Part shown: one piece after another, positions 36,001 through 42,000 of the stretch | Position numbering within the stretch: position 1 is the stretch's first letter | How the letters are laid out: every line of letters begins with the position of its first letter | Assembly (NCBI GenBank): GCA_963796055.1 | Contig: CAWCKH010000004.1 | Span: forward strand, 160,001 to 224,000 | DNA length: 64,000 nt | Source: an uncultured delta proteobacterium | Lineage (GTDB): Bacteria; Myxococcota; Myxococcia; Myxococcales; Myxococcaceae | Direction: 5' to 3' | Position numbers: made by a program

Positions 36001-39000
36001 GCAGGCGCCCTCCGGCCAGAAGCCCGCGGCGCCGGCTCCGGAACAGTCGGCGCCGGCGTCCACCGACGGGTTCAAGGGCGTCATCAAGCTCGACATCCGC
36101 GATTCCACCCCGGACTGGACGCCCTACACCCCGAAGCGGCCCCCCGAGGGAGCGCCCAACTTCCTGTTCATTCTCTACGACGACACCGGTCTTGCCGCCT
36201 GGTCTCCGTACGGGGGGCGGATCAACATGCCCACGCTCGACAAGCTCGCGGCGAACGGTCTCATCTACACCCAGTGGCACACCACGGCGCTCTGCTCGCC
36301 GACCCGGTCCACGATCCTCACCGGGCGCAACCACCACCTGAACGGCATGGCGGCGATCACCGAGACGGCCAGCGGCTTCCCCGGTGCCAGCGGCCGCCTC
36401 CCCGATCAGGCGGCCACCGTCGGGCAGATCCTCCAGGACGGTGGCTGGAGCACCTTCTGGATCGGCAAGAACCACAACGTCGCCGAGACGGACGTTGCCT
36501 CGGGGGCGAGCCGCAAGCTGTGGCCGCTCCAGAAAGGCTTCGACCGCTTCTACGGCTTCCTGGGAGGAGAGACCAACCAGTGGTACCCCGATCTGGTCGA
36601 GGACAACCACTTCACCGAACAGCCGTACGGGCCGGAGAAGGGGTACCACCTCTCCAAGGACCTGGCCGACAAGGCCATCGAGATACTCCGCGACCAGAAG
36701 GCGACCAACCCCTCGCGGCCCTGGTTCCTGTGGTTCAACCCCGGGGCCAACCATGCTCCGCACCAGGCCCCGAAGGACTACATCGCAAAGTACAAGGGCA
36801 AGTTCGACGATGGCTACGAGGCGTACCGCACCTGGGTCCTGGCACGGATGATCGAGAAGGGCATCCTCCCCAAGGGCACCCAGCTGACCCCGATCAACCC
36901 GCTGCCGAAGGACGTGGCCAACCCCGCGGACGTCGTGCGGCCCTGGAACACCCTCACCCCCGAGGAGAAGAAGCTGTTCGCCCGCCTGGCGGAGGTCTAC
37001 GCAGGGTTCTCGGAGTACACGGACGCCCAGGTCGGCCGGCTGATCGACTACCTGGAAAAGACCCACCAGCTGGAGAACACCGTCGTCTTCTATGCGGCCG
37101 ACAACGGTGCCTCGGGTGAAGGAAGCCCCAACGGCTCGGTCAACGAGAACAAGTTCTTCAACGGCTTTCCCGATTCGATCGCCGCCAACATGAAGTATCT
37201 GGATGTGCTCGGGGGGCCGGACACCTACGAGCACTTCCCGACTGGCTGGGCGGTGGCCTTTTCCACGCCGTTCCAGATGTTCAAGCGCTACTCCGAGTAC
37301 TCCGGGGGGACCGCGGACCCGCTGGTCATCTCCTGGCCAAAGGGAATCAAGGCGCGCGGCGAGATACGGAATCAGTACCATCACTCGGTGGACATCGTTC
37401 CGACCATTCTGGAGATCGCCGGATTGCAGATGCCCAAGGTCTACCGCGGGGTGGAGCAGTACCCGCTGAGCGGGGTCTCGATGCGGTACACCTTCGACGC
37501 CAAGCCCGACGACCCGACGAAGAAGAAGCGCCAGTACTACGCCATGCTCGGCACCCGAGGGATCTGGGAGGACGGCTGGTTCGCCGCCGCGATCCATGCG
37601 CCGCTCACCGGCAAGGGGCACTTCGATCAGGACGCCTGGCAGCTCTACCACGTGGACGTCGATCGCTCGGAGTCAAAGGATCTGGCCAAGGAGAACCCCG
37701 ACAAGCTCGAGGCATTGAAGAAGGTGTGGATGGAGGAGGCGGAAAAGAACAAGGTGCTCCCCCTCGACGACCGTTCCGCGATCGAGTTGCTGGGGACCGA
37801 GCGCCCGTCCGCCGAGCCCAAGCACGACCGGTACATCTACTATCCGGACACCACGCCCGTCCCCGAATCGGTGGCGGTCAACGTCCGTGGCCGCTCGTAC
37901 AAGATCCTCGGAAACGTGGAGATCACCGACCCCAACGCCTCCGGGGTCATCTTCGCCCACGGCTCGCGCTTCGGCGGCCACGCGCTCTTCATCAAGAACC
38001 ACAAGCTCTACTACGTGTACAATTTCCTCGGGATCCGGCCGGAGCAGAAGTTCGTGTCGAAGACCGCGATCACCCCTGGCAAGCACACGTTCGGCGTGGA
38101 GTTCGCCCGGGAAAAGGGAGGCGAGAACGGGGAATCCCTGGGGACCACCAGGCTCTACCTGGACGACAAGCTCGTCGCCGAGGGGCCAATGCGAACGCAG
38201 CCCGGGAAGTTCACCCTCTCGGGGGATGGGCTGTGCGTGGGGTATGACAGCGGCGACGCCGTGAGTCAGGAATACAAAACCCCCGGCACGTTCAAGGGCG
38301 GAACGATCCAGGGCGTCGGGGTCACGGTGGAGAAGGCCGAGTACCTGGATCTGGAGAAGGAAGCCAGAAGAGTGATGATGGCCCAGTAGCGCCCCGCAAA
38401 CACGTCGGACCCGTGACGGTGCGACAAGGTGACCTGCGCGCCGTCAGCGGAGGGGATGCGTCCCTGGATCTCGTCGCCGTTGGCGAGCCGCACCCGGACC
38501 CGTCCTTGCTGGGGAGGGTCAGCCTGCCGCCTCCGGTTCCGTGTCCGTCCGGTCGATGCGAACCACCCCGCGGATCTCCAGGGTCCACCTCCAGGGGGTC
38601 TGGGTGATTCGAAGGACGACTGCCTCGCAGCTCGGACACCTCAGCACGGTGCCCAGCGCACCGCCGTACAGGAGGAGCGTCCCGATCGCCGACTCTCGCT
38701 TGCACGAGGCGCAGGTACAGGACGCGCCGGTCATCTCGTGCGCGAAGATCTCCCGGAGCACGCCCGCGGCTCCGTTGCCATCCAGGTGAGTCATCGCACG
38801 CCTCCAGTGGCTCCGAATCGCTCGGTCTTCACCCGTCCCGCCGGATGACCGATGGACACCAGCAGGCTCGCCACGGACTCCACCATCGGCGTTGGTCCGC
38901 AGACTAAGACCAGGGACGCCTGGTCGGGGGCGGGCAGTGCCTCGACCAGCATCGCCCGGTCAATCCGCCGGCCATGGACGCCCGGAGGGAGCTCGGACGT

Positions 39001-42000
39001 CGCCCGGGTGAAGGTATGGGTGACCACCAGGCCGTCGCCCCGGGCGCCGAGGCGCTCCAGCTCCTCACGGAAGATGACGTCCTCGAGGGTACGCCAGGAG
39101 CAGAGGAGCCGCGCCGGAACGGCGCTCGCCCGCGCGGCGCGATGCCGCACCATGGCCATCAGCGGCACCACCCCGCTTCCGCCGGCGACCAGCCCGAGCG
39201 GGCCGCCCTGCTCCACCTGCCAGGTGAAGTAGCCGCCGAGGGGACCGCGGAGCTCGAGCGTGTCGCCAGCCCGGAGCTCGTCGGCGAGGAAGCTCGAGAC
39301 CTCCCCGTCGGGGAGACGCTCCACCGCGAGCTCGATGCCTTTCCCCTCGGGGGCCGTAGCAATGGAGTAGCTGCGCTGGGCCTGGTAACCGTCCTCTGCG
39401 GTGAGGCGCAGGTCGACGTGCTGTCCGGCGGCATGGCCGGGCCAGTCCGGGACGTGGAGGCGGATGAGCCTGACCCGTGGGGTGGCCCAGGCCAGCTCCC
39501 GGACCTCCGCCGTCTGCCAGGGGATGGGTCCGCGCCTCACGCCTTCAGTCTCCGTCGTAGCGCTCCTCTTTCCAGGGATCGCCCCGGAGATGGTACCCGT
39601 GCGTCTCCCAGAACCCGGGCTCGTCCTGGTCCATGAACGACAGGCCGCGTACCCACTTCGCCGATTTCCAGAAGTAGAGGTGGGGCACGAGCAGTCGCGC
39701 GGGTCCGCCGTGCTCCGGCTCGAGTGGTGTGCCCTCGTATTCCCAGACGACGAGGCCCTGGCCGTCGGTCAGATCCTCCACGGCGAGGTTGGTGGTGTAG
39801 CCGCCGTCGCAGAAGGCCGTCAGGTACTCGGCCGGGGGCCCGATGCCGGCTTCCTCCAGGAGGGCGTCGAAGGTGATGCCCTTCCACCGGGTGTCGAGCT
39901 TCGACCACTTGGTCACGCAGTGGATGTCCACGGTGACGTCGGCGGTGCGGAGGGCGGTGAGCTCCTTCCAGGTCCAGCGCGCGAGATCGGACCCGTCCGT
40001 GTCCCGGATGGAGAAGCTCCATTGCTCGAGCGGGGTGTGCGGCGTTGGACCGGCGGAGAGCACCGGAAAGTCCGATGTCGGGTACTGGCCCGGGGGAACC
40101 CGGGATGGATCAACGGGGCTGCGTCGTCCGTGAAAGCCTCGGGTGGCCATGGGGGGCTCCGTGCGCGTGGTCGGGAGTCAACCCCTTTCCGCCGGCGAAA
40201 TCCAACCGAGCGCCCTCTCGCTGTCCACCCGACGCCACGACCGGACCAGTGCTTCGACGGCGCGCGTGACGTCCTCCTCCGTCGTGCTGCGTCCCAGCGT
40301 GAGCCGCACCGATCCGAGGGCGTCTTCTGGCGCAATGCCCATCGCGAGGATGACCGCCGAAGCGCTCTCGGTTCCTTCGTGGCACGCCGAGCCCGTGGAA
40401 GCAGCCACCTCCGGGGCCCCGTCGAGAATGGTGTTCCCCGAAGCCCTCGGGAAGCGCACGTTGAGCGTGTTCGGCAACCGGAGCTCGCGGTGACCGTTGA
40501 GCCGGATTGCCGGTACCGCAGCCACCAGGCGATTCCAGAGCGAGTCGCGAAGCGCGCGCATCCGCGCAGCCGCTTCGAGGTCACGCCCCACCGCTTCGCA
40601 CGCCGCACCCAGCCCGACGATGCCAGCAACGTTCTCCGTGCCGGGGCGCAGACCACGTTCGTGGCTCGCGCCGAGCACGAAGGGAACGAGCGGCGTCCCC
40701 CGCTTCAGGTAGAGCGCTCCGACGCCCTTGGGTGCGTAGAGCTTGTGGCCGGCGAGGGAGAGGAGGTCGACACCGAGCTCGCGGACACGCACCGGCACCT
40801 TGCCGATGGACTGGGCGGCGTCGGTGTGAAAGACCGCGCCGTTCGCGCGCGCCAGCTCCGCGAGCTCGGCGACGGGCTGGAGCACGCCGGTCTCGTTGTT
40901 CGAGTGCATCACCGTGACCAGCGCCGTGTCGGCGTCGATTGCCCCGCGTCCCTCCTCGACACGAGCGCGGCCGTCCCCGTCGACGCCGATGCGGGAAACG
41001 CGCCACCGGTGCTTCTCCAGCCAGGCACATGGGCGTGCAGTGGCGGGATGCTCGATGACCGTCGTCACGATGCCGTTGCGCCCTTCGACCGCCTCGGCCA
41101 CGCCGCGGATCGCCAGATTGTTCGCCTCGGTGCCGCCGGAGGTGAACACCACCTCGTCAGGGTCGCAGCCGAGGAGCCCGGCGACCTGCTCGCGCGCGCG
41201 AGCCACCCCACTCCGTGCGCGCTTGCCGTAGACGTGTCCGCTCGAAGGATTGCCGAAGTGCTCCCGGAGGTACGGGACCATCGCCTCCACGACCTCGGGC
41301 AGGATTGGCGTCGTCGCGTTGTGGTCGAGGTAGATGGGGCTGCCGTCGTTCATGCCCACTCCTGCATCCAGAGCTTCGCCCGGTAACGGGCCCATCCGTC
41401 GGGCAACACGGTCACCACCGGGCCGTCGAGCCCACCCCTGGCTGCCACCTCGCTCGCCCCGATGCCTTCCACGGCGTAGGTGCCATCGGGCCCCAGGCGC
41501 CCGGTCTCCACCCAGTCAGCGAGCGCGGAACCGATCGGATCCGCGAGGACGATCCGGACGGTCGGCAGTGCGGCCTTCAGCCGGCGACCAACCCCCGTGA
41601 GCGTGCCTCCGGTACCGGCTCCCGCGACGAACGCGCCGACGCGACCGTTGGTCTGCTCGAGGACGCCGGTGTTGCCCGCGGTCGCCTCGATGAGCGTCAT
41701 CCCCGCACGGAGCACGCCGCGCGCCTCGGCGTCGTCGACGATCGCCTTGGCGATGCGGTCCTTCACCGAGCCGCCGGGATTCATGTGCTCGCACTTCGCG
41801 AGCACCGGGACGGGAAGGCCGCGCGCGAGGCGAGACAGCGGAACGAGAGGCGTGCGCCCGATGTGATCGAGAATGTCTCGCTGACCGGTGACCATCCGTA
41901 GACCAGGGCCTCGTGGACCGGGCGAGTCTACGCGGTCAACGGAAGCACCGATGCACGGTCGTGCCGCTCATGGGAACCGGCTCCTCAGGCAAGTCGGTGG

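Follow-up and report, generated by a model that had tools for sequence, protein, structure and literature searches.

A widespread bacterial gene module pairing a small sulfite-oxidase-family molybdoenzyme with its own flavoreductase: a possible cytoplasmic S-oxide reductase

In the window, the 64,000-nucleotide stretch of DNA analysed here, a molybdoenzyme module of three minus-strand genes occupies positions 38519-40150, exactly where the first-pass annotation had drawn a three-gene operon. It encodes a molybdenum (Mo) domain, an FAD/NAD(P)H reductase and a DUF6510 protein, and lies among the following genes:

32834..33751, plus strand: ferritin-like diiron protein that matches AurF weakly (PF11583, 34.3 bits, cut-off 29.6), outside the module
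33987..35750, plus strand: fusion of YiiM-type MOSC, reductase and 2Fe-2S parts (MOSC, YiiM_3-alpha, FAD_binding_6, NAD_binding_1, Fer2)
35918..38389, plus strand: arylsulfatase-type lipoprotein (PF00884, 208 bits), convergent with the module and lying between it and the AurF and MOSC genes
38519..38794, minus strand: DUF6510 protein, 91 aa (PF20120, 92 bits), an accessory with one helix and a predicted four-Cys metal site of zinc-ribbon type
38791..39540, minus strand: FNR-family FAD/NAD(P)H reductase, 249 aa (PF00970, FAD_binding_6; PF00175, NAD_binding_1)
39545..40150, minus strand: Mo protein, 201 aa (PF00174, 118 bits), a YuiH-like, single-domain molybdopterin enzyme of the sulfite-oxidase family
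40178..41353, minus strand: cysteine desulfurase of NifS/IscS type (Aminotran_5; TIGR03402 at 447 bits, below cut-off), immediately upstream of the Mo gene at a distance of 27 bp
41350..41895, minus strand: PLP gene resembling cysteine synthase but shortened to 181 aa (two stretches of the 295-position PALP model matched), which overlaps the start of the desulfurase gene; local context

The Mo and reductase genes are 4 bp apart, the reductase and DUF6510 genes overlap by 4 bp, and a Shine-Dalgarno-like site precedes each of the three. Their order is kept in 70 of 80 related loci, with six further loci interrupted by contig ends, and the arrangement recurs in 32 of the 40 loci of a second sample. 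A NAD(P)H flavoreductase adjoins the Mo gene in nearly every locus. DUF6510 is absent from 28 of 72 metagenome loci, from one entire reductase clade (39 rows) and from about five scattered loci, and the close Mo-reductase pairs without it are common enough to contradict its proposed role as an obligatory small partner equivalent to cytochrome b5. The module is a genuine, widespread bacterial gene set of a small Mo enzyme with a dedicated NAD(P)H-flavin donor; this pair is its core, and DUF6510 is an optional third component.

Two more complete copies lie at C2:234.3-235.9 kb and C4:2987.8-2989.4 kb, and a fourth Mo gene, on C5, stands alone. The three operons are all full copies, as first annotated, but not paralogs in the sense of in-genome duplicates: a common origin within the genome is rejected (AU p=0.006), and the copies are independent acquisitions. 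Compared with 30 stand-alone Myxococcota copies, module-linked Mo proteins form their own clade (100*), and neither reductase nor DUF6510 was found within 1.5 kb of any of those 30. DUF6510 is indeed rare in relatives, PF20120 exceeding its cut-off in 2 of 60.

The AF2 model of the Mo protein (pLDDT 92) matches SorA, SoxC, sulfite oxidase (SO), YedY and nitrate reductase (NR) at VIA Z 15-18 (170-181 aligned, rmsd 2.5-4.5), which together with the PF00174 score identifies a sulfite-oxidase-type Mo-MPT fold. Cys78, the predicted Mo ligand, is invariant in 62 of 62 proteins and aligns with C146 of MsrP (precursor numbering). Its loop aligns with that of E. coli MsrP without inserts (hhalign 97.9%, E 5e-13; C78-V-T-x-W-S versus C-V-E-x-W-S), the short CVxxWS catalytic loop of MsrP being present; the same region of SorA/SoxC-type enzymes aligns only with inserts. 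None of the 62 proteins has a twin-arginine motif (RRx[FL][LI]) or a hydrophobic N-terminus. Family models score far below their cut-offs, at 33.2 bits for MsrP (NF003767, cut-off 207) and 28-42 bits for sulfite dehydrogenases and oxidases (cut-offs 420-600). The fold also occurs in PruR pterin-binding proteins (Z 13.1), and the Mo protein might instead bind or store Moco or pterin non-catalytically, with the flavin reductase keeping the pterin reduced; the invariance of Cys78 and the stronger full-length match to catalytic enzymes make this highly improbable.

A role in sulfur metabolism, either as a sulfite dehydrogenase towards NAD(P)+ or as a reductase that releases sulfur from oxidised organosulfur when sulfate is limiting, gains from the structural tie of YedY, SorA, SoxC and SO (Z 17.5-18.3), from the invariant Y186, which matches the active-site Tyr of SorA/SO, and from the position of this copy after the cysteine desulfurase and cysteine-synthase-like genes and facing the sulfatase. 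However, in a profile alignment extended from a weak stretch, Leu31 and Ala33 stand where plant SO has the Arg and His that we take to bind sulfite; domain scans found PF00174 alone, without the dimerisation domain PF03404; and the sulfur-gene neighbours are not conserved, the desulfurase adjoining none of the related loci in two samples (0 of 80, 0 of 40) and the arylsulfatase 0 of 80. We regard this role as unlikely.

The reductase profile has its best PDB match in NADH-cytochrome b5 reductase (2eix, E 2.5e-27), followed by MmoC, BenC and flavohemoglobin reductase domains. An FAD barrel, an NAD(P) domain and RxYS, GxGxxP and CG motifs place it in the FNR superfamily, with R56-x-Y58-S59, G121-S-G123 and C214-G215 invariant. 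Domain scans found no heme or Fer2 (2Fe-2S) family on any of the three module proteins. Assuming that the proteins bind the cofactors their domains predict, they would form a soluble reductive chain from NAD(P)H through FAD to Mo, and the Mo enzyme probably runs in the reductase direction.

Eukaryotic nitrate reductase is laid out as an SO-fold Mo domain and a b5-reductase-type FAD domain. The parts of the module correspond to these two end domains, the Mo domain matching 2bii at Z 16.5, and the Mo protein carries two invariant basic residues, K84 and R197, as might suit a split bacterial analogue with a small oxyanion (nitrate, nitrite, chlorate or selenate) as substrate. Nevertheless, no nitrate transporter or nitrite reductase occurs among the 102 recurrent neighbour families scanned, there is no heme b5 gene and the catalytic loop is closer to that of MsrP; such an analogue is very unlikely.

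The first-pass annotation had likened the module to the eukaryotic mARC system and deduced an N-hydroxylated or N-oxide substrate from its neighbours. What survives of the likeness is the inferred soluble chain and its b5-reductase-like partner, with the electron logic of flavoreductase and Mo enzyme resembling that of mARC (PMC10637980); the Mo domain itself has the SO fold (Z 15-18), not MOSC, PF03473 finding no match in the scan that detects MOSC on the 33987-35750 gene. The neighbours do not bear out the substrate, since AurF, MOSC and P460 genes adjoin none of the related loci in either sample (0 of 80, 0 of 40). Here, AurF and the MOSC fusion are present but lie 4.8 and 2.8 kb from the module, on the opposite strand and beyond the arylsulfatase, and the fusion, with its own reductase and ferredoxin, is a self-contained mARC-like chain outside the module. 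Among the three cytochrome P460 genes noted beside the C2 copy, one is a whole ORF with CxxCH; the other two are broken, one being split into two ORFs and one stopping before any CxxCH, and two P460 proteins have signal-like N-termini, which no module protein has. Mo oxo-transfer enzymes frequently take both S- and N-oxides, a point in favour of N-oxide reduction, which we nonetheless consider decidedly improbable. Membership of the mARC type was rejected, there being no MOSC domain and no b5 or 2Fe-2S carrier, and DUF6510 being often absent.

Against a background drawn from this myxobacterial genome and not from locus-bearing genomes, msrA/msrB lie near 6 of 175 three-gene loci versus about 1.1 expected (by sample 2/80, 0/11, 1/44 and 3/40 versus 0.56, 0.08, 0.08 and 0.42). 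With a thiol-redox panel that was picked from plasmid islands, any such gene lies near 13 of 40 three-gene loci versus 3.9 expected (0 of 1000 draws), while the 80-locus set gives 9 versus 4.9 expected (maximum 13), within background. Of 28 metagenome loci with the two-gene form, 4 (3 of them distinct) have msrA/B within 3 kb, versus 0.11 expected. This form also occurs on plasmid islands: with gorA, msrAB and grxC, with msrAB twice, with osmC, peroxiredoxins and msrAB, and in a same-strand run rclR-msrA-selO-msrB-rclA-Mo-reductase-egtB-egtD. Three loci (L029, L300, L309) combine msrA/msrB and the module with a quinone-reductase-like gene 86-88% identical to one on the C2 island of this genome. 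None of the three copies here is near msr; their nearest panel genes are KatG at 8.6 kb, TrxB-like at 12 kb and, for one copy, none within 90 kb. Stress islands gather many unrelated detoxification genes, and linkage therefore leaves the substrate unfixed.

Some expression data bear on the same question. In Mycobacterium smegmatis, MSMEG_4412/4411/4410 (Mo, FAD and hypothetical proteins, matched by annotation only) lie near msrA1/msrB1 and are raised by NaOCl (log2 0.86/1.88/1.36; supplement of PMC5430705). The rise tabulated there is modest and common to adjacent transposase genes. In the supplement of PMC6943732, allicin does not induce the stand-alone yuiH of B. subtilis (1.2-fold versus 22-fold for msrA).

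The most likely reading, although we would put it somewhat below an even chance, is that the module is a cytoplasmic, NAD(P)H-fed, MsrP-like reductase of S-oxides such as methionine sulfoxide. Hydride transfer from NAD(P)H would reduce the flavoprotein, which would deliver two electrons, one at a time, to the Mo centre and so take Mo(VI) to Mo(IV). Mo(IV) would then abstract an oxygen atom from the substrate, above all methionine sulfoxide, free or protein-bound, formed by hypochlorite or peroxide. The module would thus act as a cytoplasmic MsrP whose soluble reductase replaces MsrQ. This reading draws on the MsrP-like loop, the Leu31/Ala33 replacement (weak alignment), the dedicated reductase, the linkage to msr and thiol-redox genes, the NaOCl response in M. 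smegmatis, Fre as electron source for MsrPQ, and moaA in the same genome. Against it stand the lack of a redox neighbour at most three-gene loci and of msr near the copies here, the YedY/SorA/SoxC/SO tie, the Thr that replaces the MsrP Glu, and yuiH uninduced by allicin.

DUF6510, on which a literature search found no publications, has two CxxC knuckles (spacing 25 in 120 of 140 aligned sequences). Cys28, 31, 53 and 56 are kept in 140, 139, 140 and 138 of 140, which upholds their reported invariance, whereas the LDGN..AG motif is only near-invariant (D5 136, N7 134, G11 138, A10 108). Our AF2 model (pLDDT 90) reproduces the lack of any Foldseek match at E<=0.001; the top structural rows, all weak, are eS27 ribbons of the ribosome (Z 4.0-4.4). 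DUF6510 is best read as an accessory of zinc-ribbon type that perhaps binds iron; its four Cys would hold one metal, and it may act as adaptor, redox sensor or auxiliary carrier and not as an obligatory relay. As a rather doubtful alternative, it could be an Fe(Cys)4 one-electron carrier from FAD to Mo. Its CxxCG (116/140) and CPxC (84/140) knuckles, the two loci with Mo and DUF6510 but no adjoining reductase (L144, L320) and the two module-type Mo genes found elsewhere in 5 of 5 orphan-DUF6510 genomes are in keeping with such a carrier, but not its loss from the reductase clade and scattered loci, the weak zinc-ribbon matches or a weak search that found no fusion proteins. Rubredoxin-type iron has a potential of about -100 to +100 mV, and would therefore be too positive for a Mo centre at about -250 mV, should the module share the MsrP value. 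A precedent exists in Dph3, a zinc-finger protein whose four Cys go with redox-active iron binding and which receives electrons from the b5 reductase Cbr1 (PMC8251694).

The adjoining, conserved soluble reductase is the likely natural electron donor for the cytoplasmic, single-domain members of the sulfite-oxidase family, a branch that PMC7759655 leaves without an assigned reaction; the reaction thereby becomes amenable to an in vitro screen with three small proteins. In an improbable extension, the module would be a further Msr type, thioredoxin-independent and built like a split nitrate reductase, with DUF6510 as Fe(Cys)4 shuttle in the place of heme b5, spread on stress islands in soil Actinomycetota and Chloroflexota and, in its two-gene form, on proteobacterial plasmids. 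If methionine sulfoxide repair were confirmed, a thiol-independent cytoplasmic route, useful once hypochlorite has oxidised thioredoxin, would join the four types of Msr given in PMC8161402, the presence of the two-gene form on plasmid stress islands would be explained, and DUF6510 would gain a first role.

Among known systems, mARC, YcbX and YiiM share with the module a predicted Cys-ligated Mo-MPT supplied by NAD(P)H through a flavoreductase, as described for mARC in PMC10637980, which presents mARC as a MOSC protein that resembles the sulfite-oxidase family in neither sequence nor fold; the module differs in this unrelated fold, in having no b5 or 2Fe-2S carrier and in its dispensable small partner. 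The SO-fold Mo domain and b5-reductase-type FAD domain recall eukaryotic assimilatory NAD(P)H:nitrate reductase, from which the separate genes and the lack of heme b5, dimerisation domain and nitrate-assimilation neighbours set the module apart. Unlike SorA, SorT, SoxC and sulfite oxidase, the Mo protein is without PF03404 and far below the family cut-offs. A four-Cys ribbon beside a b5-reductase-type enzyme resembles Dph3 (Kti11)/Cbr1, although DUF6510 carries an additional conserved helix at its N-terminus and is only a candidate iron binder, and sequence and fold searches gave no match to Dph3. With MsrP (YedY), a periplasmic methionine sulfoxide reductase, the Mo protein shares a single SO-fold domain without dimerisation domain and the Cys-Val-x-x-Trp-Ser loop, and with MsrP/MsrQ/Fre an FNR-family flavin reductase as proposed donor (Fre being a proposed electron source for MsrPQ; PMC12525009) and a tie to chlorine stress; it differs in lacking a Tat signal, in its length of about 200 residues against 290, in its neighbour, a soluble reductase and not MsrQ, and in the Thr that replaces Glu two positions after the Cys. 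In size, domain and location it is like the YuiH-like enzymes, described in PMC7759655 as uncharacterized, single-subunit, cytoplasmic members of the sulfite-oxidase family, and a Bacillus velezensis copy has 43% mean identity to module-linked proteins; unlike the stand-alone YuiH-like copies of Myxococcota, these constitute a separate clade with an adjoining reductase and DUF6510.

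The module comprises three tightly packed genes, all on the minus strand of the window and each recognised by a domain match:

window 39545-40150, minus strand: Mo protein of 201 aa (PF00174)
window 38791-39540, minus strand: reductase of 249 aa (FAD_binding_6/NAD_binding_1)
window 38519-38794, minus strand: DUF6510 protein of 91 aa

The first-pass annotation had described three paralogous three-gene operons in this genome and, besides the copy in the window, a tblastn search recovered two further full copies, with 50-60% identity between the enzymes and 35-37% between the DUF6510 proteins. 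A fourth Mo gene found in the same way is a stand-alone, YuiH-like gene on another contig (L003:7713-8968, G000:C5), which follows bolA and a CGFS-type glutaredoxin; the three genes stand together at 5/30 Myxococcota loci, each from the family of the host, and the C5 protein bears a long N-terminal extension and forms its own clade. The host genome holds seven PF00174 genes altogether, and a full-length SorA-like Mo enzyme with a dimerisation domain and a twin-arginine N-terminus is encoded at window 21169-22362. The component families are already known; in the literature searched, with subscription journals outside its scope, no published account was found of the Mo protein-reductase pairing or of DUF6510, no function was given for YuiH in connection with molybdenum, and no study dealt with MSMEG_4410/4411/4412 (further related work, available in part: PMC8453073, PMC8161402, PMC5817062, PMC6321594).

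The order Mo-reductase-DUF6510 was retained in 70 of the 80 GTDB loci found via DUF6510 (the best 80 of at least 520 confirmed), six others ending at a contig edge and four deviating, and the three genes occurred together in 32/40 loci of a set chosen out of 74 matches. PF20120 exceeded its cut-off in 2/60 relatives and in 36/301 genomes from the phylum of an Umezawaea genome, both tallies taking in genomes flagged as unpublished (G346, G371; G902), as well as in 68/251 genomes from the order of the same Umezawaea genome and 1/251 from the class of a Hyphomicrobiaceae genome. The genome-wide counts given in the first-pass annotation (e.g. DUF6510 near a Mo gene in 4366 of 4960 genomes) are compatible with these samples. 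Flags of the type '1 TGA' in the loci were taken as terminal stops, as checked for L149 and L187 only.

DUF6510 is accessory, yet linked to the Mo enzyme. The small partner is absent from many close Mo-reductase pairs: with the reductase as query it was lacking in eight of nine fetched candidates and in 28 of 72 scorable metagenome loci (8/80 being too short to score, and the query biased toward the DUF-less type). It was also absent from all 10 proteobacterial plasmid regions examined, and plasmid records contained 128 reductases vs 9 DUF6510 proteins. On a quick tree of 126 reductases, the DUF-less rows comprised a single clade of 39 and five cases scattered elsewhere. DUF6510 adjoins a Mo gene without a reductase in two loci (L144, L320), and all five tested genomes with an orphan DUF6510 harbour two module-type Mo genes elsewhere. 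Orphan genes with the four cysteines intact and Mo genes elsewhere (L303, L306, L311, L313, L315, L316) mostly lie directly behind a gene for an AbrB-family membrane protein. A candidate signal of co-evolution with the reductase (CG-x-T in 43/44 DUF-linked and CG-x-N in 22/28 DUF-less sequences) was rejected, as it reflected a single clade and 0/4 independent pairs agreed.

The four cysteines of DUF6510 are retained in 138-140 of 140 diverse sequences, and its model (pLDDT 90) consists of a helix and a four-Cys ribbon, for which ribosomal eS27 was the top, albeit weak, structural match (Z 4.0-4.4). Foldseek returned no match to the model at E<=0.001, the profile had none below E 0.69 against PDB sequences, rubredoxin and Dph3 were absent among the fold matches listed, and ESM Atlas matches were DUF6510 clusters only; no longer or fused protein appeared among 7999 candidates, which is weak evidence. 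By likeness to Dph3/Cbr1 (PMC8251694, in excerpt) the ribbon might hold iron and relay electrons; a Mo centre near -250 mV, if similar to that of MsrP (PMC12525009, excerpted text), would better suit direct transfer from FAD, and we consider the relay rather unlikely. A second ribbon and reductase pairing was seen at L177:5798-6777, where a related reductase gene without a Mo gene is preceded by an unrelated, Pfam-negative 75-aa protein with two CxxC pairs.

The three host copies are best read as separate acquisitions, because they fall apart on a concatenated tree of 29 rows and a constraint grouping them together was rejected (p-AU 0.006), the phylogenies of copies, Mo proteins and reductases all being quick trees. 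The C2 copy and the second C4 copy sit on islands of lower GC, both of which carry a DoxX-like gene and a quinone-reductase-like gene, the latter 82% identical between the two; as annotated in the first pass, an integrase is present on the C2 island. After this integrase, the low-GC stretch (L001:7424-16731) is decaying: of its three P460-family genes one is intact and two are broken, and it contains fragments of phosphoglucose isomerase and aldolase. Three loci (L029, L300, L309) combine msrA/msrB and module genes with a quinone-reductase-like gene 86-88% identical to that of the host C2 island, which makes the host island copies members of the same island family, though without msr themselves.

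The module had initially been interpreted as a soluble bacterial counterpart of mARC acting on N-hydroxylated or N-oxide compounds, a reading drawn from AurF, MOSC and P460 neighbours. These genes adjoin 0/80 and 0/40 related loci and thus fail as a substrate clue. In the window, the opposite strand encodes AurF (a weak match) and the MOSC fusion, at distances of 4.8 and 2.8 kb from the module and beyond an arylsulfatase, the fusion carrying its own reductase and ferredoxin; the three P460 genes reported by the C2 copy do exist, but only one is whole, another being split and the third ending without CxxCH. Furthermore, the Mo protein model has a sulfite-oxidase fold, to which the MOSC domain of mARC is unrelated (PMC10637980, in the available text), and reduction of N-O compounds appears decidedly improbable. 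The fusion at window 33987-35750 (YiiM-type MOSC, reductase and 2Fe-2S), with the weak AurF-like diiron gene upstream, is itself a true one-chain mARC-like enzyme. The genes that run up to the module in its own direction (window 40178-41895) encode a cysteine desulfurase and a shortened protein resembling cysteine synthase, an arrangement found at none of the relatives.

Outer neighbours of the module are largely not conserved; the theme that recurs is methionine and thiol repair. In four sets of three-gene loci, msrA/msrB were found by 2/80, 0/11, 1/44 and 3/40 loci vs 0.56, 0.08, 0.08 and 0.42 expected from random windows of the host genome, from which all expected counts derive. A 13-family redox panel gave 13/40 vs 3.9 in the 40-locus set (0/1000 draws) and 9/80 vs 4.9, within background, in the 80-locus set. 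Among two-gene loci, msr genes occurred in 4/28 (three distinct) vs 0.11 expected, and in 0/8 of the DUF-less fetched pairs. Redox genes were present in 9/10 and msrA/msrB in 4/10 plasmid regions, which illustrate the theme and do not test it, because several represent the same island and the regions supplied the panel; the clearest case is the same-strand run rclR-msrA-selO-msrB-rclA-Mo-reductase-egtB-egtD. The two-gene form also lies in a widespread plasmid stress island (L274, L275, L280, L281; msrAB, gorA, GST, grxC, DUF427, DUF417) of Enterobacter, Brevundimonas, Acinetobacter and Aeromonas, sometimes with integrons near. The window itself encodes a catalase-peroxidase 7.4 kb off the module (47586-49766) and a run of KaiC-like ATPase, histidine kinase and response regulator (28464-31517).

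Published expression data, taken from excerpts, concern genes of which the mycobacterial and Gordonia ones are equated with the module by annotation and gene order only. MSMEG_4412/4411/4410, located close to msrA1/msrB1 in M. smegmatis, show a modest increase with NaOCl, as do nearby transposases (PMC5430705); B. subtilis yuiH showed no response to allicin (PMC6943732). The Gordonia pair was up 3-9-fold on organosulfur (PMC7661421). A module serving sulfur metabolism seems improbable.

No export signal was detected in the 62 Mo protein members checked, and single-subunit cytoplasmic enzymes of the sulfite oxidase family are described as uncharacterised in a review (PMC7759655, in part). The host genome contains moaA. 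NADH-cytochrome b5 reductase was the best PDB match of the reductase, whose invariant T178-R179 hints at NADPH by likeness to D239T and S920D (PMC5817062, excerpt), the positions being compared unaligned. In the proposed mechanism, FAD would be reduced by NAD(P)H, Mo(VI) would then accept electrons from FAD in two steps to yield Mo(IV), and Mo(IV) would take the oxygen atom off the substrate. Judged from folds, motifs and gene context, on which all our estimates for the module are based, it probably works in the reductase direction, and an S-oxide such as methionine sulfoxide is tentatively favoured as substrate. MsrP-type enzymes protect against reactive chlorine (PMC4436054), and one proposal has Fre supply their electrons (PMC12525009), both according to partial texts.

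Compared with known systems, the AF2 model of the Mo protein (pLDDT 92) scores Z 15-18 against SorA, SoxC, SO, YedY and nitrate reductase. Action on oxyanions is very improbable. Cys78 is invariant, and a non-catalytic Mo protein scarcely credible. The Cys78 loop aligns gap-poor to that of E. coli MsrP (97.9%), whereas SorA and SoxC types require inserts. Leu31 and Ala33, in a weakly aligned stretch, apparently occupy the Arg and His positions of sulfite oxidases. Sulfite oxidases possess a dimerisation domain, unlike the module Mo protein, which is not a member of the mARC family either; the module is proposed to work like MsrP, without being an MsrP member.
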